Part shown: positions 3,601 to 14,213 of the stretch, piece by piece
How the letters are laid out: every line of letters begins with the position of its first letter
Numbering within the stretch: the first letter of the stretch is position 1
The notes under the pieces: generated by a model
Databases searched by the model: none
Told to the model about the DNA's origin: nothing
Seen by the model: only the letters and a program-made list of their open reading frames with translations
DNA from: Actinomycetota bacterium
Lineage (GTDB): Bacteria; Actinomycetota; Acidimicrobiia; IMCC26256; BP-133
Direction of reading: 5' to 3'
Assembly: GCA_030838785.1 (NCBI GenBank)
Contig: JAUZEY010000207.1
Location: 1 to 34,874, forward strand
DNA: 34,874 nt
Program-made: the position numbers and the translations under genes

Positions 3601-4710
3601 TCAGGGCCGACGCCGTCTCATGCCCCGAACCGGGGGGCGGTGCCGCAGGGCGGGGGAGCGGTCGGAGATCCAGGGGGCGTAGGGCGCCATCACGAATCCG
3701 GCCATGATCACCAGCACGGTGTCGTAGTTCACCCGCCAGCCCGAGAAGTCGCGCCAGGCCTGGTCCCGGTCGCCCCGGAGGGGGAGCCCGGCCGCGGCCA
3801 GGTGGTCGTAGACGGCGTCGTACTCTTCCCGGCTGATGGAGATCGGGTCGCCGGGGGAGGGTGAAGGGTCGTAGGGGATGTCGTAGAAGTCGGCGATCCG
3901 TCGCAGGGCCAGGTAGCCGCCCCGGACGCAGAGTTCCGCCGACGGGCTGCGGGCGACGTCGAGCGTGCTGGCATAGATCGACGCCGTGTCGAGCACCACT
4001 CCGGCGGCGATGATCCACGACCGTTCGGGCTGCGGGGAGCGGAAGAACGGCAGCCCGGCGAAGCTGGTGTGGGTCTCCTCGATGTCGACGAACCAGTCGA
4101 GCCACGGCCGCCAGACGTCCATCTCCATCTGGTCGAGCCCCTTGATGGCCTGGAAGCGGCTGAGCATCTCGGCCGGCGTGGGCGGTGAGCCGGCCAGGAT
4201 CGTCACCAGGGCCACCGAATGCTCCCGGCGGGAGAAGGCGCCGTACATCGACGGCAGGTAGGTGATGAGCAGGGCCAGCAGGATGAGGCCGAGCACCGCC
4301 TCGGCGAAGGCCAACACGGTCGTCGGCAGGTCGGGGGCCCGCAGGAAGCCGAGCGTGAGCAGCGACGAGCCGCTGGTCACGAAGGCGGTCCGGAGGGGCT
4401 GCACACCCAGGGCCCAGAACATGGCCGTGAACCCCACGAGCGTGAGGGCCAGCCACACCACCGGCAGCACGATGAGCGTGAGGGGGGCGTACAGGGCCAT
4501 GCCCCGGTCGCGCTCCTCGTAGGTGTCGGCGAACCGGCTCCGGAACTCGAAGAACCGCCGCATCGTGAGGAAGACGATCCGGGTCAGGCGGACGGGCACC
4601 CCCCGGGGCACGACCACCGTGCTGACGGCCGACAGGAAGACGGCCGTCGACCAGGCCAGTCCGGCGGCGAAGGCGGCGATGGCGGCCACGGTGCAACCCG
4701 GACAGTTCAC
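3601..4710 (-). CDS. Membrane protein with a 2TM/pore-loop ion-channel-like module and a cytoplasmic C-terminal domain
   Basis: Hydrophobic helices flank AFVTSGSSLLTLGF (pore-helix/filter-like), followed by LLITYLPSMYGAFSRRE and FFRSPQPERSW. The start may instead be GTG 4692. Confidence 0.72.
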   Translation of the reverse strand: MNCPGCTVAAIAAFAAGLAWSTAVFLSAVSTVVVPRGVPVRLTRIVFLTMRRFFEFRSRFADTYEERDRGMALYAPLTLIVLPVVWLALTLVGFTAMFWALGVQPLRTAFVTSGSSLLTLGFLRAPDLPTTVLAFAEAVLGLILLALLITYLPSMYGAFSRREHSVALVTILAGSPPTPAEMLSRFQAIKGLDQMEMDVWRPWLDWFVDIEETHTSFAGLPFFRSPQPERSWIIAAGVVLDTASIYASTLDVARSPSAELCVRGGYLALRRIADFYDIPYDPSPSPGDPISISREEYDAVYDHLAAAGLPLRGDRDQAWRDFSGWRVNYDTVLVIMAGFVMAPYAPWISDRSPALRHRPPVRGMRRRRP

Positions 4711-4808
4711 CTGACGCGCCCCATACCTCGACCGCCCGGCAGGCCGCGACGGGACAAACCTCGGGCCGCGGCGCAGGAAATCGAGGAAACTTGTCTAATT
4801 CTCAGGCG

Positions 4809-4839
4809 TTCCGATAAAGTCAATCGACTTGGTAGACAA
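4809..4839 (+). promoter_or_regulatory. Palindromic Rrf2/CymR-like operator upstream of the ABC operon
   Basis: TTCCGATAAAGTCAATCGACTTGGTAGACAA contains CCGAT-N7-ATCGA and AAGTC-AATC-GACTT; the operon ends in an Rrf2 gene. Confidence 0.55.
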
Positions 4840-4856
4840 CTCGGGAGGCTCCGAAG

Positions 4857-5924
4857 GTGAAGATGCATCGTCGCATGCGGACGGGCGTGGCGGTCGGCCT
4901 GCTGGCCGCGCTGGCCCTGGCCGGCTGTGGATCAGATTCCAAGAAGTCTGCCGAGGGCGGCGCCGTCAAGGGTGCCGAGAAGGTGACCCTCCGCCTCGGC
5001 TACTTCACGAACATCACCCATGCCTCGGCGCTGGTGGGTCTGGAGAAGGGCATCTTCGCCGACAAGCTCGGCCCGAACGTGACCCTGACCCCGAGCGTCT
5101 TCGCCGCCGGGCCGGCCGCCGTGGAGGCCATCTTCAGCGGCGCCATCGACGCCACCTACGTCGGGCCCAACCCGGCCATCAACGCCTTCGCCAAGAGCAA
5201 CGGTGAAGCGGTCCGGATCATCTCCGGGGCCACCTCCGGCGGAGCGTTCCTGGTGGTGAACCCGTCCATCGCCAAGCCGGCCGACCTCAAGGGCAAGAAG
5301 GTCGCCACCCCCCAGCTGGGCAACACGCAGGACGTGGCGCTGCGCAGCTGGCTCAAGGCCAACAAGCTCTCCAGCGACACCCAGGGCGGCGGTGACGTCT
5401 CGGTCGTGCCCCAGGACAACGCCCAGGCGCTGGAGGCCTTCAAGGCGGGGTCGATCGCCGGGGCCTGGGTGCCCGAGCCCTGGGCCACCCGCATGGTGCA
5501 GGAGGGCAAGGGGAAGGTCCTCGTCGACGAGAAGACCCTCTGGCCCGGCGGGCAGTTCGTGACCACCCAGCTCATGGTGCGGACCGCGTTCCTGAAGGAC
5601 CACCCGGACGTCGTCCAGCACCTCCTCGAGGGCCAGGTGGCGGCCACCGACTTCCTCAACGCCAACCCGGCCGAGGCCAAGACGCTGGCCAACCAGGCCA
5701 TCCAGAAGGTGGCCGGGAAGGCCCTGCCCCAGGCCGTCCTCGACGCCGCCTGGCCCAACATGACCTTCACCAACGACCCCATCGCCGCCAGCCTCCGCAA
5801 GGGCGCCGACAACGCCAAGGCCGTCGGTCTCCTCGACGCCGGCACCAAGCTCGACGGGATCTACGACCTGACGCTGCTGAACAAGGTCCTGAAGGCGGCC
5901 GGCAAGCCGGAGGTGAAGTCGTGA
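4857..5924 (+). CDS. ssuA: Aliphatic sulfonate/nitrate-type ABC transporter substrate-binding lipoprotein
   Basis: Lipobox LAGC; LRLGYFTNITHA, YVGPNPAIN, ATPQLGNTQDVALR, AWVPEPWA. Confidence 0.88.
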   Translation: MKMHRRMRTGVAVGLLAALALAGCGSDSKKSAEGGAVKGAEKVTLRLGYFTNITHASALVGLEKGIFADKLGPNVTLTPSVFAAGPAAVEAIFSGAIDATYVGPNPAINAFAKSNGEAVRIISGATSGGAFLVVNPSIAKPADLKGKKVATPQLGNTQDVALRSWLKANKLSSDTQGGGDVSVVPQDNAQALEAFKAGSIAGAWVPEPWATRMVQEGKGKVLVDEKTLWPGGQFVTTQLMVRTAFLKDHPDVVQHLLEGQVAATDFLNANPAEAKTLANQAIQKVAGKALPQAVLDAAWPNMTFTNDPIAASLRKGADNAKAVGLLDAGTKLDGIYDLTLLNKVLKAAGKPEVKS

Positions 5925-6724
5925 GTGCGCTCCGTCTGAGCCCGGGGCGCGCCGCCGAGACCACCTCGGCTCCCGCCCCCGGCAGCCCGGCCATCTCGGT
6001 CGACGCCGTGACCAAGGTCTACGGGCCCCGGGGCAACCACACCTTCGCCCTCGACCGCATCTCCCTCGAGGTGGCCCCGGGCGAGTTCTGCTGCCTGGTC
6101 GGCGCCTCCGGCTGCGGCAAGAGCACGCTCCTCAACCTGCTGGCCGGGCTCGACTCGCCGGCCGCCGGCACGGTGGCGGTCCACGGCCGTACCTCGCTCA
6201 TGTTCCAGGAGTCGGCGCTGTTCCCCTGGCTGTCGGTGCGGGGCAACATCAACCTGGCCCTGCGGCTGGCCGGCGTCCCCAAGGGCGAGCGCTACGACCG
6301 GGCCAGTGAGCTGCTCCGCATGGTGCGGCTCAAGGGCTTCGGCGGCAAGCGGCCCCACGAGCTCTCCGGCGGCATGCGCCAGCGGGTGGCGCTGGCCCGG
6401 TCCCTGGCCCAGAACGCCTCCGTCCTCCTCATGGACGAGCCGTTCGGCGCCCTCGACGCCATCACCCGCGACCTGCTCCACGACGAGCTCGAGCGGGTGT
6501 GGCAGGAGACCGGCCTGTCGGTCGTGTTCGTGACCCACAACGTGCGGGAGGCCGTCCGCCTCGGCGACCGGGTGCTGGTGCTGTCGAGCCGCCCCGGCCG
6601 CGTCGTCGACGAGTTCCCCGTCGACATCCCCCGTCCCCGTCGCCTCGACGACGCCGAGGTGTCCTCCCTGTCCGGCACCATCACGGACCGTCTCCGCCAG
6701 GAGGTGCGCCGCCATGGCGCTTGA
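5921..6724 (+). CDS. ssuB: Sulfonate/nitrate ABC transporter ATP-binding protein
   Basis: Walker A GASGCGKS, signature LSGGMRQR, Walker B LLMDEPFGALD, VTH; GTGA overlap with the upstream gene. Confidence 0.92.
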   Translation: MSALRLSPGRAAETTSAPAPGSPAISVDAVTKVYGPRGNHTFALDRISLEVAPGEFCCLVGASGCGKSTLLNLLAGLDSPAAGTVAVHGRTSLMFQESALFPWLSVRGNINLALRLAGVPKGERYDRASELLRMVRLKGFGGKRPHELSGGMRQRVALARSLAQNASVLLMDEPFGALDAITRDLLHDELERVWQETGLSVVFVTHNVREAVRLGDRVLVLSSRPGRVVDEFPVDIPRPRRLDDAEVSSLSGTITDRLRQEVRRHGA

Positions 6725-7616
6725 GATCCAGGATCCCCCCGTCCTGAGTGACCGGGAGGCCGAGATCGCCGGCCTCGACGCCCTCGACGTCCCCCTCGCC
6801 TCGGCCCGGGGCAAGCTGGCCCGGGCCTGGGAGGGCCTGTGGCCCAAGCTGACCGCCCTGGGGCTGTTCCTGTTCGCCTGGCAGGCCATCGTCTGGTCCC
6901 ACTGGAAGCCGGACTACGTCCTGCCCGGCCCCATGACGGTGCTGAACAAGATGTGGCACGACCTCGTCGACACCGGCGGTGCCGCCGGGCCGCACGTCCT
7001 GCTCCACGCCGCCGGCACGACGATGCAGCGGGCCGTGGTCGGCTACGGCATGTCGGTCGTCATCGGCGTGGTCGTGGGCCTGGCCGTGTCCCGCAGCCGG
7101 ATCCTCCGGGCCGGCGTCGGGTCGATGATCACCGGCCTGCAGACCATGCCGACGATCGCCTGGCTGCCGCTGGCCGTGCTGCTGTTCAAGCTGTCCGAGA
7201 CCGCCATCACCTTCGTGGTCGTCATGGGGGCGGCGCCGGCCATCGCCAACGGCGTCATCTCCGGGGTGGACCACATCCCGCCGGTCCTGCTGCGGGCGGG
7301 CCGGGTGCTCGGGGCCAGGGGCCTCAGTGCCTACCGTTTCATCATCCTTCCCGCCGCCCTCCCGGGCCTCGTGGCCGGGCTGAAGCAGGGCTGGGCCTTC
7401 GCCTGGCGGTCCCTCATGGCCGGTGAGTTGATCGTCATCATCGCCCACAAGCCGTCGCTCGGGGTCCGGCTGCAGAACGCCCGGGACTTCTCCGACGCCC
7501 CCGGCCTCATGGCCGCCATGCTGGCCATCTTCGTCATCGGCGTCGTCATCGACTCGCTCTTCTTCGGCGTCCTCGAGCGGGGCATCCGCCGCCGCTGGGG
7601 CCTGGGCAGCCGGTAG
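6714..7616 (+). CDS. ssuC: Sulfonate/nitrate ABC transporter permease
   Basis: Six TM segments; LQTMPTIAWLPL; EAA-like RAGRVLGA; AFAWRSLMAGEL. Confidence 0.9.
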   Translation: MALEIQDPPVLSDREAEIAGLDALDVPLASARGKLARAWEGLWPKLTALGLFLFAWQAIVWSHWKPDYVLPGPMTVLNKMWHDLVDTGGAAGPHVLLHAAGTTMQRAVVGYGMSVVIGVVVGLAVSRSRILRAGVGSMITGLQTMPTIAWLPLAVLLFKLSETAITFVVVMGAAPAIANGVISGVDHIPPVLLRAGRVLGARGLSAYRFIILPAALPGLVAGLKQGWAFAWRSLMAGELIVIIAHKPSLGVRLQNARDFSDAPGLMAAMLAIFVIGVVIDSLFFGVLERGIRRRWGLGSR

Positions 7617-7624
7617 CTACGACG

Positions 7625-8080
7625 ATGCGCGAAGTCGGCATGCAAGTGACGGCCAAGGCCGAGTACGCCCTCCGGGCGGCGACGGTGCTGGCCTCGGCGG
7701 GGCCCGGGCCGGTCAAGAGCGAGACGATCGCCGACGCCGAGGACATCCCCCTGCGGTTCCTCCACAACATCCTGGCCGCCCTCACCCGGGGTGGGATCCT
7801 GACCAGCCTGCGGGGCGCCGACGGCGGCTACGAGCTCTGCCGGGACGCAGCCACGATCACCGTGGCCGACGTCATCCGGGCGGTCGAGGGGCCGTTCGCC
7901 GCCGGCGGCGGCCCCGAGATACCCACCGCAGTCTCCGGCGCCCGGCGGGAGACGCTCCGGGCCGTGTGGGCCGTCCTGCGGGCCAACGAGCGAGCCGTCC
8001 TCGAGTCGGTCACCCTGGCCGACCTGGCCGCCGGCCTCCTGCCCGAGATGACCTCGGTCGGACGGGCGCCGTCGGCCTAG
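7625..8080 (+). CDS. Rrf2-family transcriptional regulator (CymR-like, no Fe-S Cys triad)
   Basis: TAKAEYALRA, IPLRFLHNIL, SLRGADGGYEL, ITVADVIRAVEG; only one Cys. Start 7625 or 7640. Confidence 0.9.
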   Translation: MREVGMQVTAKAEYALRAATVLASAGPGPVKSETIADAEDIPLRFLHNILAALTRGGILTSLRGADGGYELCRDAATITVADVIRAVEGPFAAGGGPEIPTAVSGARRETLRAVWAVLRANERAVLESVTLADLAAGLLPEMTSVGRAPSA

Positions 8081-8091
8081 TCTGGGCCTTC

Positions 8092-8892
8092 GTGGCAACC
8101 CTGGTCAGCTTTCACGCCCACCCCGACGACGAAGCGATCGCCTGCGGCGGCACCATGGCCAAGGCCGCCGCCGCCGGGCACCGGGTCGTCCTGGTCACGG
8201 CCACCTCGGGCGAGTGCGGCGAGGTGGCCGACGGCGTCCTCGACCCGGGCGAGACGCTGGGGGAGCGGCGCCAGAAGGAGCTGGCCGAGGCGGCCGAGAT
8301 CCTCGGCGTGGCCCGGGTGGAGATCCTGGGCTACCGCGACAGCGGCATGATCGGCACTCCGGAGAACGAGGACGCGGGGTGCTTCTGGCAGACGCCGGTC
8401 GACGAGGCGGCGGCCCGCCTGGCTCGCATCCTGGCCGAGGAGCGGCCGGACGCCCTCACGGTCTACGACGAGCACGGCAACTACGGCCATCCCGACCACA
8501 TCCAGGTCCACCGGGTCGGCGTGCGGGCGGCGGAGATGGCCCGGGTGGAGCGGGTCTACGAGGCGACGCTGAACCGCGACGAGTTCCGGCGGCTCATGGC
8601 CCGGGCCACCGAGCTCGGCCTTCCCGACGCCGCCGACCTGCCCGACATGGAAGACGTGGGCGACCAGATGGGGCTGCCCGAGGAGCTTCTGACGACGGCG
8701 GTCGACGTGTCGTCGCAGCTCGAGGTCAAGCGGCGGGCGATGGCCGCCCACGCCAGCCAGATCGACGAGAACTCTTTCTTCCTCACCATGCCGCCGGTCG
8801 CCTTCGCCGCGGCCTTCGGCACCGAGTGGTATCGGCGTCGCGGGGCGCCCCCCGGCCTGCGCGAACGGGAGATCCTCCCCAACGGGCTGTGA
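8092..8892 (+). CDS. PIG-L/LmbE-family deacetylase/amidase (MshB/Mca-like)
   Basis: FHAHPDDE, LGYRDSGM, GNYGHPDHIQVH, AHASQ; TAGTCT -10 lies 8 nt before the GTG. Confidence 0.9.
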   Translation: MATLVSFHAHPDDEAIACGGTMAKAAAAGHRVVLVTATSGECGEVADGVLDPGETLGERRQKELAEAAEILGVARVEILGYRDSGMIGTPENEDAGCFWQTPVDEAAARLARILAEERPDALTVYDEHGNYGHPDHIQVHRVGVRAAEMARVERVYEATLNRDEFRRLMARATELGLPDAADLPDMEDVGDQMGLPEELLTTAVDVSSQLEVKRRAMAAHASQIDENSFFLTMPPVAFAAAFGTEWYRRRGAPPGLREREILPNGL

Positions 8893-8898
8893 GCGAAC

Positions 8899-8959
8899 GT
8901 TTCCACGCTGGAAACACAAGCGAAAACGGCCCAGCACAGACACTTCGTAGCGTTCTGCT
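8899..8959 (+). promoter_or_regulatory. FNT promoter with GlnR-like box and TAGCGT -10
   Basis: TTTCC-n6-GAAAC-n6-GAAAA with 11-bp period (8900-8926); TAGCGT at 8948-8953. Confidence 0.5.
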
Positions 8960-9006
8960 CCAAAGGCCCGGCTGGCCTGTGGCCCGGGCACCGAAAGGAG
9001 CAGCCC

Positions 9007-9873
9007 ATGCCCATACCCATTGCCGAAGCCGTCTCGGAGCAGGCCGATCTGGCCCGGACGAAGGCGGTGGCGGCAAAGAACGTTCCGAAATTCCTGTTCT
9101 CCTCCGCGCTGGCCGGGGCCTACGTCGGCGTCGGGATCGTCCTCCTGGCCGCCACCACCGGGCCTTTGGCAGCGGCGAACTCTCCAGCCGTCAAGCTCGT
9201 CGCGGGGGCTGTCTTCGGAGTCGCTCTGACGCTGGTGATCATGGCCGGCGCGGACCTGTTCACCGGTCTGAACATGATCATGCTGCAGGGCTTGGCGGCG
9301 GGGACCGTGAATGCGCTCGAGCTCCTCTTCGTCTGGATCTCGTCGCTGGTGGGAAACCTGATCGGCGCTCTCGCCTTCTCCTGGCTGATAAACGCCGGCG
9401 GAACGCTGTCGGCGAAGACCCCGGCCGGGAAGCTCGGCCCGGGTGAGGCGTTCCTGGAGTCCCTGGTGAAGGCCAAGAACGCCGCGCCGGGCGCCCAGCT
9501 CTTCTGGCGGGCGCTGGCCTGCAACATGCTCGTCTGCCTGGCGGTGTGGATGGCCGCCCGGACGCGCAACGACGCCGCCAAGGTGATGGTCGTCTGGTGG
9601 TGCCTCATGGCGTTCATCGCCGTCGGCCTGGAGCACTCGATCGCCAACATGACGATCTACGGCGTGGCCATCTACCACCACGCCGCCGGGTATTCGGACC
9701 TCCTCCGCAACCTGACCTGGACCGTGCCGGGGAACATCGTGGGTGGGGGGCTCGTCATCGGCCTCGGCTACGCCTGGATCGCCGGGAAGAGTTCGGCGAT
9801 GCCGGCGGAAATGGTCGAGCCAACCCCGGTTGGCTCCAACGGGATGGCGGCGGAGGCGGCGGTCGCCCGCTGA
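9007..9873 (+). CDS. Formate/nitrite transporter (FNT) family channel, NirC-like
   Basis: LAGAYVG, GADLFTG, GNLIGA, CNMLVCLAVW, GLEHSIANM, PGNIVGG; AAGGAG RBS. Confidence 0.93.
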   Translation: MPIPIAEAVSEQADLARTKAVAAKNVPKFLFSSALAGAYVGVGIVLLAATTGPLAAANSPAVKLVAGAVFGVALTLVIMAGADLFTGLNMIMLQGLAAGTVNALELLFVWISSLVGNLIGALAFSWLINAGGTLSAKTPAGKLGPGEAFLESLVKAKNAAPGAQLFWRALACNMLVCLAVWMAARTRNDAAKVMVVWWCLMAFIAVGLEHSIANMTIYGVAIYHHAAGYSDLLRNLTWTVPGNIVGGGLVIGLGYAWIAGKSSAMPAEMVEPTPVGSNGMAAEAAVAR

Positions 9874-9904
9874 TTCAGCCCTCGTCGAGCAACACCCGAC
9901 CGTA

Positions 9905-9940
9905 AGCGGGGCCCGACGCAAGTCGGGCCCCGCTCTTTTG
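9905..9940 (+). terminator. Intrinsic terminator after the FNT gene
   Basis: Perfect 13-bp stem AGCGGGGCCCGAC, GCAA loop, GTCGGGCCCCGCT, then CTTTTG. Confidence 0.88.
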
Positions 9941-10034
9941 CGTCAATACCGTTCGAATGTTTCTCAATAGCCATTCGAATTTAAAGGGATAAGAACGTCG
10001 GTCGGCGGCTGCTAGAAGTTCCAAGCGAGATCCC

Positions 10035-10095
10035 GTTCTCTGGTTGGAAACATTCGGCAAACGGCTGCGACGCAAACGTTTCCTAGCGTCCTGCT
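10035..10095 (+). promoter_or_regulatory. Copper-cluster promoter with the same architecture as the FNT promoter
   Basis: TTCTC-n6-GAAAC-n6-CAAAC; GAAAC (10047) is 37 nt from TAGCGT (10084), the same distance as at the FNT promoter. Confidence 0.55.
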
Positions 10096-10244
10096 TGCGG
10101 TGGTTTGTCCGTTGTGTCCGCTTGCGGCGCTGACGGGACCTCCCACCCGCTGGCGCCCCATCGGGGGCGAAAACCCCGCATGTCCTTGCCGCCTTACATC
10201 ACACCAGATCGGGGTTGCACACCCGAGAAAGGGGCTGCGCCGCA

Positions 10245-12254
10245 GTGAGAGAAACCACCAAACGACCGCGCGGAAGCATCAGGAGGAAGCTGCTCGGGCT
10301 TCCCGCTCTGCTCCTCCTTGCGACTGTCGTCGGCACGGCGAGCCTGGCCGGTTTGGCCGGGGCGTCCTCGTCACAGGGGGGAGCGAAGTTCGACGCTGCC
10401 ACCTGGAAGCCGACGCTCGACAGTCCGCTCCCGCCGATGGAAGCGCCGCTGTCGTTCCACCTGAGCGACCAGCCGGCGTACTGGTACGACAACGGTCGAG
10501 CCGACCTCGAAGGAATCCTGCACACCCGCTCGCTGTCGGCGGCGGTAGCCGGGGTTCCGACGAAGGTGAAGTTCGAGATCGGTGAGCCGTACACCAGCCA
10601 GACCCACACCGTTTCCAGCATCGTCTGGCCGGTGGGGGCCAAGGGAGTGCCCTTCATCCAGCAGGGGTCCTTCGCCGGGGAGACCGAGTTCGAGCTCTCC
10701 TCGCCGGGCCTCTACGTGTTCCAGTGCCGGGTCCACCCCTACATGCTCGGGGCCGTCGTCAACGACGACCCGACCACGCCGGGCGCCGACCTGGGCAAGT
10801 CGGTCCACTGGATCGACGGTACCGACATGCCGACCGCTTCCGACGAGATCCTCTTCATCGTCTCGAAGTTCTTCATCGTGACGGAGCCGGCCAACTGGCA
10901 GTACTACTCGCCCGACCACCCGGTCGTGTGGGACCCGCAGTTCCCGAGCGCCCCGGTGATGACCGGCAACGCCGACGGCTCTCCGAACCTGATTCCCAAC
11001 CTCAACGACTACTTCCACGCCAAGTACCACCTGCCCCAGACCCTCAACCCGCCGACCAAACCTGACGTCCAGGCCGTGGGCGACATGATGGTCGACACGC
11101 AGTTCGAGAAGTCGGCCGGCAAGGACAAGCCCGGCTCCATCACCACGTTCGACGGTTCGACGTGGGAGATGGACCGCAAGATGTTCCTGCCGTCGATCAA
11201 TATGAACAACCCGCACAACATGGGCCTGAGCCGTGACCAGAAGACCCTGTTCCAGAGCCAGTGGTTCTCGAACAAGGTCACGGCGATCGACCTGGCTACC
11301 GGCAAGGAGCTCCACACCACGGAAGTCGGACCGTCCCCGTCGCACGTCATGCGGCGTCCGGGCACCGACACGCTCATCGTTCCCAACAACGGTGGCAACC
11401 GGATCGTGGAGCTCGACCCCGCCGGGTCGAAGGTGATCAAGTCGTACTTCACCCAGGCCCCGGGTCAGGACCCTGCCTTCCCCCACGCCCACTGGGTGAG
11501 CTTCGACGGGAAGCACGTGGTCACCCCGAACTCGAACGAGTCCAACGCTTCGCTGTTCGACCTCAGCGTGCCGAACATGGTCAAGCCGTTCTCCGGCGGG
11601 TTCCCCGTCGCGACGTCGATGACCAACGACGGCAAGCGGGCGTACGTGGCCAACCTCCTCGACCACACCATCCGGTGTTTGTCGGTGGATGCGCCCGCCT
11701 GCCCGACGCCTGACGGTTCGATCAAGGATACGTACTCGATCGACCTGCGGGAGCACTACAACAAGATCAGCGGCGAGTCGAACGGCCCCTACGGCCTTTC
11801 GCCGATCCAGCTGCCGGTCAGCCCCGACGACCACTACATGCTGGTGGTCGGCACCTTCACCGGCAACGTGCTCGAGATCGACATGAAGACGAACAAGATC
11901 GTCAAGTCGTTCCCGTGCGGTCCCGGTTGCCACGGCATCAACTTCGGCGCCAAGAAGGGCGGGGGCTACCTCGGTTACGTGTCGGTCAAGTTCGCCAACG
12001 TCGCCTGGGTCATCGACGGTGACCCCAACAGCGACGGCGACCTGTCCGACGCCCGCCTGACCGGTGGCGTCATCACCAGTGGCGCAGCCACCAAGATCAA
12101 CGACGACACGCCCAGCTCGCAGTTCGGGCAGGGCGGCCAGGGCGTCTGGGCCTACCCCGAGGTCTACAACGGGTGGGTGCAGGAGCTGCCCGACGAGTGG
12201 AAGTCCCAGTTGACCTGCCAGCAGCAGAACCCGCTCCTGAAGGCGGTCTGCTAA
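10245..12254 (+). CDS. Exported copper protein: N-terminal type-1 Cu cupredoxin domain fused to a YVTN/YncE-like beta-propeller, 669 aa, function unknown
   Basis: GAAAGGGG RBS then GTG; signal peptide with IRRKLL; T1 ligands HTVSS and CRVHPYM; propeller blades (VTAIDLATGK, EVGPSPSHV, DGKRAYVAN) with His motifs NPHN, PSH, PHAH and CHG. Confidence 0.8.
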   Translation: MRETTKRPRGSIRRKLLGLPALLLLATVVGTASLAGLAGASSSQGGAKFDAATWKPTLDSPLPPMEAPLSFHLSDQPAYWYDNGRADLEGILHTRSLSAAVAGVPTKVKFEIGEPYTSQTHTVSSIVWPVGAKGVPFIQQGSFAGETEFELSSPGLYVFQCRVHPYMLGAVVNDDPTTPGADLGKSVHWIDGTDMPTASDEILFIVSKFFIVTEPANWQYYSPDHPVVWDPQFPSAPVMTGNADGSPNLIPNLNDYFHAKYHLPQTLNPPTKPDVQAVGDMMVDTQFEKSAGKDKPGSITTFDGSTWEMDRKMFLPSINMNNPHNMGLSRDQKTLFQSQWFSNKVTAIDLATGKELHTTEVGPSPSHVMRRPGTDTLIVPNNGGNRIVELDPAGSKVIKSYFTQAPGQDPAFPHAHWVSFDGKHVVTPNSNESNASLFDLSVPNMVKPFSGGFPVATSMTNDGKRAYVANLLDHTIRCLSVDAPACPTPDGSIKDTYSIDLREHYNKISGESNGPYGLSPIQLPVSPDDHYMLVVGTFTGNVLEIDMKTNKIVKSFPCGPGCHGINFGAKKGGGYLGYVSVKFANVAWVIDGDPNSDGDLSDARLTGGVITSGAATKINDDTPSSQFGQGGQGVWAYPEVYNGWVQELPDEWKSQLTCQQQNPLLKAVC

Positions 12255-12261
12255 CCCAATC

Positions 12262-13737
12262 ATGCGCCGTTTCCTGATCGGCGCCCTTCTCGCCGCCGCC
12301 GGGGTGTTCGTCACCCCGGCGGCGGCTTGGGCCCATGCCGAGCTCCTGTCCTCCACCCCCGGCTACGGGGACCACCTGCCCACCGCGCCGGCCGAGATCC
12401 GGCTCGAGTTCTCGGGCGCCATGGACCTCACCGGCTCCCGCCTCACGTTGCAGCACAAGGGCGGAAAGACCGAGGCGCTGGGTCACCCGGCGCTGGCGTC
12501 CCCGGACCGCCGGGTGGTGGCGGTTCCCCTTCCGCCCAAGCTGGGCGACGGCGGATACTCCCTCGTCTGGTTCTTCCTCGGCAACGACGGCCACCTCATG
12601 GGCGGGGACATCGAATTCGCAGTCGGAAGGGCCGCACCGGAAGGCTCCGCCACCGTCGCCGCGTCGGCGGGCCGCGTCGAACCGACGGCCAAGGTCCGCT
12701 CGCTCGGGGACGGCATCGCCGGCCCCGCCATCGAACTGCAGGCCAGCACCGCTCCGGCACCGGCCCCGAAACGGGCCCGGTTCACCATTGCCGTCGCCAC
12801 TCCCCAGGCCGCCGTCCGCTTCCTCGACTACGCCAGCCTCGCCACCCTGATCGGCGGTGGGGCGTTCCTGGCCCTGGTGTGGACCGACGGCACCCGCGAG
12901 CGCCGGGCGCAGCAGCTGCTGTGGTGGGCGCTGCTCGGCTCGGCCGGCGCCACGCTGCTCAGCTTCGGCCTCACCGCCGCCGGCCTGCGGGGCGTCGGGG
13001 CCCTCGACGCCCTCCGCCCGTCCGTCATGAGTGCCGTGCTCGGCACCCGCTTCTCCCGGATCATCACGGCCCGGGCCGGGTTCCTGGCGTTGGGTTTCGT
13101 CGCTCTGGCCCTGCTGACGCTGGGCCGGGACCGGGCGGTCAGCTCCCGGTGGTGGCAGGGCCTGGCCGGAGTCGCCGCGGGCGGGGTGCTGGTCACCCAC
13201 GCCCTGCTCGGGCACGCCTCCAGCGAAGGTCTCCTGGCCCGCGTGGCCGTGCTGGTCCATATCGCCGGCGTGTCCGTCTGGCTCGGCGGTCTCATCTTTC
13301 TCGTCGTCGTCGTGCTGCCGCGACGGCGCCCCGACGAGGTCCGCGTCCTCCTGCCCCGCTTCTCCAGCCTGGCCTTCACGGCGGTGGCGGCCATGGTGGT
13401 GGCCGGGGCGGTGATGGTCACCCGGGTCGTGCCGAGGCTGAGCGCGCTGCCGCAGACCGGTTACGGCCGGATGCTGCTGCTCAAGCTGGCGTTCGTGGCG
13501 CTCCTGCTCGTGGCTGCCCAGCAGGCCCGCACCTTCACGGAGCGCCGCCTGGTGAAGGACTCCACCCGGCTGCGCCCGCTGCTCACCGCCGTGGGCGTGG
13601 AGCTGACCCTGGCCATCGTCATCCTCTCCTCGACCGCCGTGCTGGTGGGCCGGGTGCCGCCCACCACCCGCACCAACCGCACTGCTGCACCAATCGTCAC
13701 TGCACCGATCGTCACTGCACCGAAAGGACCGGGATGA
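12262..13737 (+). CDS. copCD: CopC-CopD fusion copper uptake/delivery protein
   Basis: Signal peptide ending AWA then HAELLSSTP (N-terminal His) and the DGH motif of CopC; multi-TM CopD part with GHA, HIAGVSVWLGG, PRFS and YGRMLLLK. Confidence 0.92.
   Translation: MRRFLIGALLAAAGVFVTPAAAWAHAELLSSTPGYGDHLPTAPAEIRLEFSGAMDLTGSRLTLQHKGGKTEALGHPALASPDRRVVAVPLPPKLGDGGYSLVWFFLGNDGHLMGGDIEFAVGRAAPEGSATVAASAGRVEPTAKVRSLGDGIAGPAIELQASTAPAPAPKRARFTIAVATPQAAVRFLDYASLATLIGGGAFLALVWTDGTRERRAQQLLWWALLGSAGATLLSFGLTAAGLRGVGALDALRPSVMSAVLGTRFSRIITARAGFLALGFVALALLTLGRDRAVSSRWWQGLAGVAAGGVLVTHALLGHASSEGLLARVAVLVHIAGVSVWLGGLIFLVVVVLPRRRPDEVRVLLPRFSSLAFTAVAAMVVAGAVMVTRVVPRLSALPQTGYGRMLLLKLAFVALLLVAAQQARTFTERRLVKDSTRLRPLLTAVGVELTLAIVILSSTAVLVGRVPPTTRTNRTAAPIVTAPIVTAPKGPG
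13685..13724 (+). repeat. 15-bp tandem repeat (about 2.6 copies) encoding APIVT
   Basis: CTGCACCAATCGTCA CTGCACCGATCGTCA CTGCACCGAA. Confidence 0.85.
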
Positions 13738-14213
13738 TCACACCACTACGCGCTGCCGCCCTCGCGGTCGCGACGGCGTTGCTCGTACCGATGGTGACGT
13801 CCGGCCCGGCCCGGGCCGAGGAGCACACCGACGAGATCAAGGGCCTCGCTTTCAACCCGGACCAGCTGTCGGTCCGGGCCGGTGACGCCGTCACCTGGGT
13901 CAACCACGACAGCGACAAGCATCACCTGCAGGGTGACGGGTTCGAGTCGAAGGATCTGCCCAACAACAGCACGTTCACGGTCCAGTTCCCGGAGCCGGGG
14001 GAGATCGCCTACCACTGCACGATCCACACCTATATGGAGGGCAAGGTCGTCGTGTTGAACCCCGACGGCAGCACGCCGCCTTCCACCGCCGGAGAGCCCG
14101 AGGCGCCGCCCGCCCCGTCGACCACGACGTCGAGCACCAACCCGCCCGGCCCGCTGGACGGCGTGCCGGCGGCGCCCGCACCGGCACCGCCCGTACCGGC
14201 GCCGAAGCGATGA
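13734..14213 (+). CDS. Secreted amicyanin/plastocyanin-like blue copper protein with Pro-rich tail
   Basis: Signal peptide; AFNPDQLSVRAGDAVTWVN, KHHL, YHCTIHTYMEGKVVV (C-x2-H-x2-M); ATGA overlap with copCD. Confidence 0.9.
   Translation: MITPLRAAALAVATALLVPMVTSGPARAEEHTDEIKGLAFNPDQLSVRAGDAVTWVNHDSDKHHLQGDGFESKDLPNNSTFTVQFPEPGEIAYHCTIHTYMEGKVVVLNPDGSTPPSTAGEPEAPPAPSTTTSSTNPPGPLDGVPAAPAPAPPVPAPKR

Follow-up and report, generated by a model that had tools for sequence, protein, structure and literature searches.

The stretch of DNA analysed here (the window, 34,874 nucleotides (nt) from a draft genome of an Actinomycetota bacterium) contains two promoters of similar sequence. One precedes the gene of a transporter of the FNT family, the other an operon for four copper proteins, namely a secreted protein that joins a cupredoxin to a beta-propeller, a CopC-CopD fusion protein, a small cupredoxin and a two-domain multicopper oxidase. 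Both promoters are discussed here as candidate targets of the nitrogen regulator GlnR; all positions are collected in Table 1. The FNT protein scored 183.6 bits with the NirC model and 187.2 bits with the FNT model of NCBIfam, each below the model's own cut-off. A terminator between the two units, noted in a first-pass annotation of this DNA, was recovered with a stem of 13 base pairs (bp), of which 11 are G-C pairs, followed by CTTTTG.

The source genome (G000, genus g1) comprises 4,497,451 bases in 604 contigs and is 77.7% complete. It was compared within a family of 12 genomes that includes members of the genera g1, g2 and g3; two of the genomes (G010 and G011) are unpublished. The G+C content across the window is 66-78%. 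DNA of this stretch was contained in soil metagenomes, and the 14 related loci were labelled as Acidimicrobiia (nine), uncultured Actinomycetes (three), Actinomycetota (one) and an uncultured Burkholderiales bacterium (one).

Table 1. Features around the two promoters, numbered from the first letter of the window.
Feature	Position	Strand	Remarks
SsuA/NMT1-type ABC transporter	4857-7616		upstream end of the gene series
Rrf2-family regulator gene	7625-8080		Pfam Rrf2 9.9e-31; two genes upstream of the FNT gene
PIG-L/MshB-like deacetylase gene	ends 8892		stop codon overlapped by the GTGAG pentamer
GTGAG pentamer, FNT promoter	8889..8893	+	11 nt before a1
a1 TTTCC, FNT promoter	8900..8904	+	weak; no A at position 4
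b1 GAAAC, FNT promoter	8911..8915	+	37 nt before the -10 hexamer
a2 GAAAA, FNT promoter	8922..8926	+	identical pentamer in the orthologous promoters of G003 and G004
b2 AGCAC, FNT promoter	8933..8937	+	nnnAC kept: TCTAC (G003), TCCAC (G004)
-10 hexamer TAGCGT, FNT promoter	8948..8953	+	n10 after b2; predicted start ~8960-8962
Shine-Dalgarno sequence GAAAGGAG of the FNT gene	8993-9000
FNT-family transporter gene, NirC-like	9007..9873	+	Pfam Form_Nir_trans E 1.4e-56
Intrinsic terminator 3' of the FNT gene	9905..9940	+	stem 9905-9934
GCGAG pentamer, copper promoter	10025..10029	+	11 nt before a1
a1 TTCTC, copper promoter	10036..10040	+	no A at position 4
b1 GAAAC, copper promoter	10047..10051	+
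a2 CAAAC, copper promoter	10058..10062	+	AC-n9-AC pair with b1; same in G004
b2 GACGC (weak), copper promoter	10069..10073	+	same in G004; GCAAC in G006; GTAAC in g3
-10 hexamer TAGCGT, copper promoter	10084..10089	+	predicted start ~10096-10098
Copper-operon 5' leader, ~148 nt	10097..10244	+	alignment with G004
Secreted cupredoxin + beta-propeller protein, 669 residues	10245..12254	+	GTG start inferred; TTG at 10215 possible
CopC-CopD fusion protein	12262..13737	+	Pfam CopC 8.4e-16, CopD 2.7e-14
Small cupredoxin	13737..14213	+	start uncertain; Cupredoxin_1 / Copper-bind
Two-domain multicopper oxidase, 407 residues	14210..15433	+	Cu-oxidase_3 and Cu-oxidase_2

Layout of the two promoters

The two promoters occupy stretches of 61 nt (8899-8959 and 10035-10095), which the first-pass annotation had described as near-copies of each other with a GlnR-like box. 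Their ungapped identity is 38 of 61 positions. When the 26 half-site and -10 positions are set aside, 19 of the remaining 35 spacer positions still agree, where 9.5 are predicted from composition. Hence, the likeness of the two promoters exceeds their shared motifs. In both, GAAAC begins 37 nt before the -10 hexamer TAGCGT and GTT begins 12 nt before GAAAC, as annotated. In the GlnR-like box, the b1 site is a perfect GAAAC in both promoters. The register had been placed one base off: the upstream site that fits the consensus, TTTCC or TTCTC, begins 11 nt before GAAAC, the G of the annotated GTT lies one base upstream of this site, and the site lacks the consensus A.

The GlnR element is described in the available text of PMC10235972 as four sites, a1, b1, a2 and b2 (gTnAc / GaAAC), six bases apart. 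In the activation complex four GlnR molecules are bound head to tail, their DNA-binding domains lie on either side of the -35 position, and b2 is on its downstream side; the scaffold begins at -64, and a2 is called dispensable there with reference to Wang et al. Both promoters of the window fit one frame without gaps, a1-n6-b1(GAAAC)-n6-a2-n6-b2-n10 followed by a -10 hexamer TAnCGT. Written in this frame, the FNT promoter reads TTTCC-GAAAC-GAAAA-AGCAC-n10-TAGCGT and the copper promoter TTCTC-GAAAC-CAAAC-GACGC-n10-TAGCGT. The four sites thus span the inferred -35 position in both cases, with a -10 hexamer and no good -35 hexamer. A search of 8700-10400 for sigma-70 consensus promoters with a -35 hexamer gave none, as is expected where promoters depend on an activator.

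The layout goes beyond chance agreement. The sequence TAGCGTnCTGCT, and likewise GGAAAC followed by TAnnnTnCTGCT, occur on both strands of all contigs only at the two promoters. The composite pattern GTT-n9-GAAAC-n32-TAnnnT has three matches genome-wide, at the nir, FNT and copper promoters, and none in the 12 simulated genomes that a third-order Markov model generated. For TTC-n8-GAAAC-n32-nAnnnT there are three matches as well (nir, amtB and copper) against a simulated mean of 0.17, and the shorter TTY-n8-GAAAC is enriched, with 44 sites against a simulated mean of 22.6. Among 18 annotated open reading frames downstream of such sites (16 picked from these 44, two from another pattern), those linked to nitrogen encode AmtB, a type III glutamine synthetase, an amino-acid permease and a cyanase.

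Sequencing runs were also searched for transcripts. Those labelled as RNA, among 22 runs, contained at most 0.10 of the sampled words. Four runs aligned to the window yielded five short contig pieces, four in the propeller gene and one in the FNT gene; no transcript start, end or strand could be read from these pieces, which bear on none of the points discussed here.

The four-site frame at nitrogen genes and in related genomes

A GlnR-type element is present at canonical targets in the source genome, namely upstream of amtB-glnK (contig C67) and amtB2 (C534), in the glnA intergenic region (C41) and upstream of nir (C31). The amtB-glnK promoter reads G-TTCAT-n6-GAAAC-n6-GTGAC-n6-GAAAC-n10-cAnnnT and is conserved in 10 of the 12 family genomes (eight without the unpublished G010 and G011); all ten sequences were read, and the ungapped frame was laid out for eight of them. 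The third match of the composite pattern lies 5' of the nir gene on C31, which encodes a nitrite/sulfite-reductase-type protein of 734 residues fused to a Rieske domain. It is followed by a gene for a HemD + winged-helix protein of 414 residues with the architecture of the regulator NnaR, and a sirohaem synthase gene diverges from it. Besides the nir promoters of G000 and G008, the frame fits the nirB promoter of G004, the amtB2 promoter and the sirohaem synthase promoter of G000 without gaps. The last of these (C31, + strand, ~4456-4509) reads TTCAC-GCAAC-GGAAC-TTCAC-n10-TACCGT and leads into a leaderless ATG.

The same ungapped frame fits the promoters of MFS transporter genes in G003 and G004 and the copper promoters of G004, G006 and four genomes of genus g3. 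In G004, which belongs to the same genus as the source genome, each of the two promoters agrees with its counterpart at 46 of 61 positions, and the gene behind the first one encodes an MFS transporter of NarK type (509 residues) in place of FNT. In G003 the first promoter precedes a leaderless NarK-type gene whose ATG follows TAGCGT after 8 nt. The transporter promoter frame therefore recurs in three genomes (G000, G003 and G004), and one conserved promoter has differing cargo, FNT in G000 and a NarK-type transporter in the other two. The copper promoter frame is kept in seven genomes of three genera, one of which (G010) is unpublished. It reads TTCGT-GAAAC-ACAAC-GCAAC-n10-TACGGT in G006 (genus g2) and TTCkC-GACAT-nCAAA-GTAAC-n10-TAGsGT in the four g3 genomes. 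Consequently, the tie of the copper operon to nitrogen control is not peculiar to the source genome. At b1, GAAAC is found in 6 of the 7 framed transporter, copper (g1 and g2) and nir promoters, and also in the MFS promoter of G003 and the nir promoter of G001; the g3 copper promoters and the nirB promoter of G004 have GACAT or GACAC instead.

Six leaderless genes of this promoter class have their start codon 6-8 nt behind the -10 hexamer. This distance calibrates the -10 hexamers of the window and predicts transcription starts near 8961 (FNT) and 10097 (copper). In G008 the FNT gene stands directly 3' of nir, followed by a PIG-L gene, and is convergent with the copper operon; FNT is thus tied to nitrite assimilation there by operon structure. 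An MshB-like deacetylase gene accompanies these genes in all three genera. Further high-scoring four-site candidates were seen on C99 (+760) and C136 (+452); one of the genes behind them encodes a Peptidase_C26 / glutamine amidotransferase protein, the other is an open reading frame of 147 residues without a Pfam family.

A GlnR orthologue is encoded on C41 (1532-2251), directly after glnA. It is an OmpR-type protein of 239 residues whose best solved relatives are 8HIG, 8HIH and 8HML (E 4e-42 to 7e-33, compared with 6.5e-25 for MtrA); 8HIH is the M. tuberculosis GlnR complex and 8HML the DNA-binding domain of S. erythraea GlnR. No residue of its recognition helix RTVDVHVRRLRAKLG differs from the solved relatives, those reported to contact bases included, and the protein scores 23.4 bits with Pfam GlnR_1st (cut-off 27). 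Orthologues at 89-99% identity occur in 10 of the 12 family genomes, G010 and G011 included, and the gene adjoins glnA in all five genomes where both were located.

A weight matrix from amtB and nir promoters, a kind of test proposed in the first-pass annotation, was applied to all 8,930,878 positions. It was trained on eight promoters (four of amtB-glnK at half weight, amtB2, nir of G000 and G008, and nirB of G004) and contained no FNT, MFS or copper promoter. Ranks 1, 2 and 4 are training sites, and rank 3, the best match outside the training set, is the sirohaem synthase promoter. The copper promoter follows at rank 5 (25.5 bits, z 6.6) and the FNT promoter at rank 48 (12.6 bits, z 5.0); within the window, on both strands, these two sites have the best scores. 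The orthologous promoters reach 23.6 (MFS, G004), 15.6 (MFS, G003), 24.5 (copper, G004), 35.0 (copper, G006) and 22.9-29.2 bits (copper, g3). An earlier matrix from amtB-glnK of eight genomes was in effect a single site and too narrow, and was replaced by this broader training set.

From the common frame, the matches at canonical genes and the GlnR orthologue, both stretches are probably activator-dependent promoters of the GlnR type. The earlier proposal of one activator for both units, plausibly GlnR, is supported by the same observations and by the frame of the copper promoter in seven genomes. Since the layout equals that of the amtB and nir promoters, the copper proteins probably take part in the response to nitrogen starvation. 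The copper operon can be regarded as a well-supported, sequence-predicted new member of the GlnR regulon, whereas the box itself is of a known type.

Several observations weigh against this assignment. The a1 sites TTTCC and TTCTC have the T at position 2 and the C at position 5 but lack the A at position 4. For M. smegmatis, GlnR binding is described as dependent on the adenines of AC/T-n9-AC, which are essential (PMC3662644, as far as its text was available). The copper promoter has one such pair, between b1 GAAAC and a2 CAAAC; the FNT promoter has none, and the ACs of its b1 and b2 are 22 nt apart. The FNT promoter is also only a modest match to the broader matrix, and about half of the 47 positions that outrank it look intergenic by a rough measure of codon periodicity. 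The amtB-glnK matrix ranked the copper promoter 69th and the FNT promoter 1059th of all positions. Moreover, the training sites were framed by eye after the geometry had been seen, so that the ranks are supportive rather than fully independent, and with a genome about 78% complete the genome-wide counts are lower bounds. Two of the four amtB paralogues have no box, and the glnA site differs in its distance to any -10 hexamer. A cyanase gene (cynS) was tried as a further member and rejected: the gene is leaderless and its promoter looks similar, but the promoter scored -6.5 in the ungapped frame, with one spacer shorter and one longer. The leaderless cyanase gene on C407 (- strand, 1323-1763) is preceded by GAAAC-ACACTC-GAAAA-..-TTGAC-n11-TAGTGT, which resembles the FNT promoter with shifted spacers.

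Candidate regulators other than GlnR

The sites could be occupied mainly by another OmpR/PhoB-family regulator with GlnR-like specificity, acting as activator or repressor and leaving GlnR a secondary role. Candidates are a PhoP-like protein or the MtrA/RegX3-like response regulator encoded on C248 (226 residues; best solved relatives RegX3 at 4.9e-61 and MtrA at 1.6e-60). The recognition helix RLVDVHVRRLRTK of the C248 protein keeps the base-contacting residues of GlnR, a further point against an assignment to GlnR. Streptomyces PHO boxes have a GTTCAC core, which the G-TTCnC of the present sites resembles. Reports that MtrA binds GlnR boxes in competition with GlnR, and that PhoP competes at glnA and amtB, are found in the available parts of PMC10704036, PMC6277429 and PMC10235972. 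However, the layout recurs at amtB-glnK, amtB2, nir/nirB and the sirohaem synthase gene, which is the gene set of a nitrogen regulon, its geometry equals that of the GlnR activation complex, and for these genes GlnR and not MtrA was decisive according to the accessible portion of PMC10704036. We therefore consider a leading role of another regulator of this family unlikely.

A second regulator deserves attention because of a conserved pentamer. G[T/A/C]GAG lies exactly 11 nt before a1 in eight g1 promoters (FNT, two MFS, two copper, two nir and sirohaem synthase) and not at amtB; the nirB promoter of G004 has GCGTG in its place. The pentamer may be a half-site of NnaR or a fifth phased site. 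The NnaR orthologue of the source genome is the protein encoded after nir (C31, 952-2193; HEM4 7.2e-31 and Trans_reg_C 6.8e-10), and full-length orthologues (at least 72% identity) were found only in the g1 genomes G000, G001, G004 and G005. For mycobacteria and Streptomyces the NnaR motif is given as CTCAC[A/C]-16 bp-[T/G]GTGAG (PMC6277429) or CTCAC..13-16 bp..GTGAG (PMC11162112), in the excerpts at hand. Between the divergent nir and sirohaem synthase promoters, CTCTC-n14-GAGAG in G000 (n13 in G001) resembles these motifs, and inspection of 12 upstream regions by eye revealed a left arm only there. The full palindrome is absent from the FNT and copper promoters, which have only the pentamer resembling its right arm. 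The weakness of a1 and a2, together with the conserved GnGAG a helical turn further upstream, suggests that a helper is required by the nitrite-linked subset; the NnaR-like regulator encoded after nir is the likeliest candidate. As no left arm is present at the two promoters, this helper stays a lead.

It is a different matter whether NnaR could be the main activator of nir, sirohaem synthase, FNT/NarK and the copper operon, sensing nitrite or nitrate, with GlnR acting mostly indirectly via nnaR. Apart from the gene after nir, its g1 orthologues, the pentamer and the CTCTC/GAGAG arms, such a role would agree with M. smegmatis, where NnaR bound the nirB and narK3 promoters avidly and GlnR only modestly, and where the transcripts are leaderless (PMC6277429, accessible part). 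Against it, a CTCAC-like left arm at constant distance was not found in the FNT, MFS or copper promoters, the arm spacing at nir varies and is below the published one in G000 as well as in G001, and the nirB promoter of G004 departs from the pentamer. Furthermore, G008 (92% complete) and G006 (87%) have the four-site copper promoter, and no full-length NnaR was found in them by this query. Hence, NnaR is an improbable main activator.

The likeness of the two promoters might also be the mere trace of a local duplication, without co-regulation by any nitrogen regulator. Spacer identity is 15-19/35 in the four pairs of transporter and copper promoters within g1 and 7-15 in all other pairs between classes. 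This excess suggests common descent, most simply a promoter duplication within genus g1 before G000 and G004 separated, and the FNT site is, as stated, a modest matrix match. Yet G004 (both promoters) and G003 (transporter promoter) keep the half-sites and the -10 hexamer while the spacers drift, the frame is kept in three genera despite unrelated spacers (10-12/35), and the third composite match in the genome is nir. Duplication as the whole explanation is thus very improbable.

Control of both units by the nearby Rrf2 regulator through the palindrome GTTTCCAcgcTGGAAAC (8899-8915, with a degenerate copy at 10035-10051) can practically be dismissed. In its favour, this 7+7 palindrome is without mismatch and occurs once in the genome, and some Rrf2 proteins sense nitric oxide (the NCBIfam NsrR model gives 39.4 bits, far under its cut-off of 182). 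Against it, the palindrome is lost in the copper promoter (GTTCTCT vs TGGAAAC) and in the orthologous G004 promoter, and G004 has both promoters but lacks an Rrf2 gene at this locus. Only G003 and G005 have orthologues with 75% identity or more (46-53% paralogues in the other family genomes), and what is conserved in the promoters is a series of direct repeats in 11-bp register, with no inverted repeat.

We therefore return to GlnR. The layout, its conservation across genomes, the canonical nitrogen genes and the GlnR orthologue were read directly in the sequences; from these we infer binding and activation by GlnR, the start sites and the induction by nitrogen limitation. The four pentamers in 11-bp register (a1 TTyyC, b1 GAAAC, a2, and b2 nnnAC or GACGC) would cover about -60 to -23, as estimated from the -10 hexamer, with TAGCGT ten bases further on and no -35 hexamer. 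By analogy with the described complex, nitrogen shortage would lead as many as four GlnR molecules to line up head to tail across the -35 position, where they would recruit RNA polymerase. Transcription of the gene for the FNT nitrite transporter would in that case begin near 8961, and the operon for the cupredoxin-propeller protein, CopCD, the cupredoxin and the two-domain oxidase would have an independent start at about 10097. Presumably, the two units would be induced alongside amtB-glnK, the operon of nitrite reductase and NnaR, and the gene for sirohaem synthase.

The copper operon and known systems

The leader of the copper operon is far more conserved between the source genome and G004 than the downstream protein (66% identical), and its motif CATCACACCA reappears in the leaders of genus g3. 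Its predicted fold is not more stable than that of shuffled sequences (z-score of the minimum free energy +0.34), and it matched no Rfam family at gathering score. An Rfam scan of 8700-10400 returned two matches, both below the gathering scores; one of them, BjrC68 (28.8 vs 39 bits), falls on the terminator hairpin. Just 5' of the copper promoter, at 9952-9979, lies an inverted repeat TTCGAATG-n12-CATTCGAA that is not kept in G004. Its minus strand contains one of only three genomic copies of the 10-mer GAAACATTCG; the other two are at b1 of the copper and amtB2 (C534) promoters. Further upstream, 5' of the SsuA-type ABC operon (4760-4850), A+T-rich DNA contains the 7-bp inverted repeat TTGTCTA..TAGACAA, which may be an operator of Rrf2 or of another regulator.

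In the propeller protein the N-terminal ligand pattern of a type-1 copper site (H121, C161, H164 and M167) is invariant in eight sequences, and the propeller, of YVTN/lactonase type, gives weak YNCE/YVTN matches. Some 280 relatives match at E 1e-10 or better, and their annotations do not go beyond YncE, YVTN, plastocyanin or 'copper oxidase'. Homologues with 44-46% identity are found in Saccharothrix, Gandjariella, Actinokineospora, Saccharopolyspora erythraea and Amycolatopsis; none of 400 other sampled Actinomycetota genomes contained the gene at E 1e-60 or better. An AlphaFold2 model from eight sequences (mean predicted local distance difference test, pLDDT, 69.3; predicted template modelling score, pTM, 0.75) predicts a cupredoxin followed by a generic seven-bladed propeller. 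When the model was compared with the PDB by Foldseek, all matches were generic seven-bladed propellers, namely a YVTN surface-layer protein of an archaeon, hydrazine synthase beta and lactonases, from which no function follows; the same two entries also headed a PDB search by sequence. Look-alikes in the ESM Atlas, which are leads only, include 'copper oxidase' clusters in Nitrospirota and Pseudomonadota and fusions of multicopper oxidase and lactonase, partly from Nitrososphaerota.

The small cupredoxin is closest to the amicyanin model of NCBIfam (46.8 bits, under the cut-off). For the two-domain oxidase the best solved relative is 3G5W (E 4.9e-43), listed for Nitrosomonas europaea in Table 1 of PMC3192119 (available in part); copper nitrite reductase reached only 1.3e-20. 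A two-domain multicopper oxidase of an ammonia-oxidising archaeon converts hydroxylamine to nitroxyl according to the available text of PMC11761707.

A second group of propeller-CopCD paralogues (loci L020, L021, L022, L023 and L027 of G008, G009, G007, G003 and G010, respectively) has a different upstream element. The conserved, partly palindromic CTTGTTTTCTAGGACAAA..CCTAATATTCAAGC is followed there by a short open reading frame and is unlike the four-site frame. Owing to this difference, these paralogues seem to be under another regulator.

One possible, rather speculative role of the copper operon is that of an extracytoplasmic nitrogen-scavenging system, switched on under nitrogen starvation, which would oxidise an extracellular nitrogen compound, reduced or organic, so that the product can be imported and assimilated. 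Hydroxylamine, nitric oxide or an amine would be candidate substrates, with nitrite or ammonium as the product. Uptake would proceed via the co-regulated FNT/NarK and Amt transporters and assimilation via the likewise co-regulated NirA-type nitrite reductase. If true, this would assign a function to a family annotated only as 'copper oxidase' or 'YncE', to which cultured Pseudonocardiaceae contribute members of 44-46% identity, and uncover a so far unrecognised way in which abundant soil Acidimicrobiia acquire nitrogen.

Irrespective of the substrate, a lineage-restricted operon for four copper proteins appears to belong to a GlnR-type regulon in three genera, beside a nitrite transporter gene. 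This regulatory context is the sole functional clue for the propeller-protein family and points to nitrogen acquisition. The clue is testable, since homologues exist in Saccharopolyspora erythraea and relatives with established glnR genetics. In Streptomyces and mycobacteria, GlnR boxes belong to textbook knowledge. A literature search found no paper joining GlnR with Acidimicrobiia; papers retrieved for GlnR together with multicopper oxidase had neither term in any title or abstract, and the words copper, multicopper and laccase are absent from a 2023 GlnR review. The conservation of a canonical four-site GlnR promoter in an uncultured soil lineage means that its nitrogen regulon is readable from sequence.

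Among known systems, the closest parallel is the GlnR complex at the amtB promoter of M. tuberculosis (8HIH; PMC10235972, in the text at hand), which likewise has four sites with six-base gaps, b2 downstream of the -35 position, a poor -35 and a normal -10 hexamer, and an orphan regulator of the OmpR/PhoB type with the same recognition helix. Unlike there, a1 of the present promoters lacks the A of gTnAc and a2 and b2 are degenerate; the host is probably a member of the Acidimicrobiia and not of the studied Actinomycetes, and the cargo is FNT and the copper operon. The nas promoter of Amycolatopsis mediterranei (as cited in the available part of PMC10235972) also combines genes of nitrate/nitrite assimilation with a four-site GlnR element in which a2 can be poor, and three of its four sites are essential. 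In contrast to it, a1 is weak here as well, and an additional GnGAG lies one turn upstream.

The nirBD and narK3 promoters of M. smegmatis and M. abscessus resemble the present ones in that a nitrite reductase and a transporter stand behind weak GlnR boxes with an upstream ..GTGAG (PMC6277429 and PMC11162112, both as far as available). These promoters are served by GlnR and NnaR, with nnaR in the nir operon, and they share with our set the leaderless arrangement seen here for nir, nirB, sirohaem synthase and the NarK gene of G003. They differ in that the FNT and copper promoters have no complete CTCAC..GTGAG palindrome, and a copper operon is not among the NnaR regulon members named in the accessible text of the same two papers.

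A precedent for the copper enzymes exists in M. smegmatis. According to the available portion of PMC3662644, the GlnR targets of this species include nirB, nnaR and narK3, and the most strongly induced of all is a copper amine oxidase. Although this enzyme (MSMEG2526) is from an unrelated protein family, and a four-gene operon takes its place here, it is likewise a copper enzyme, is under direct control of GlnR and has been read as serving nitrogen scavenging.

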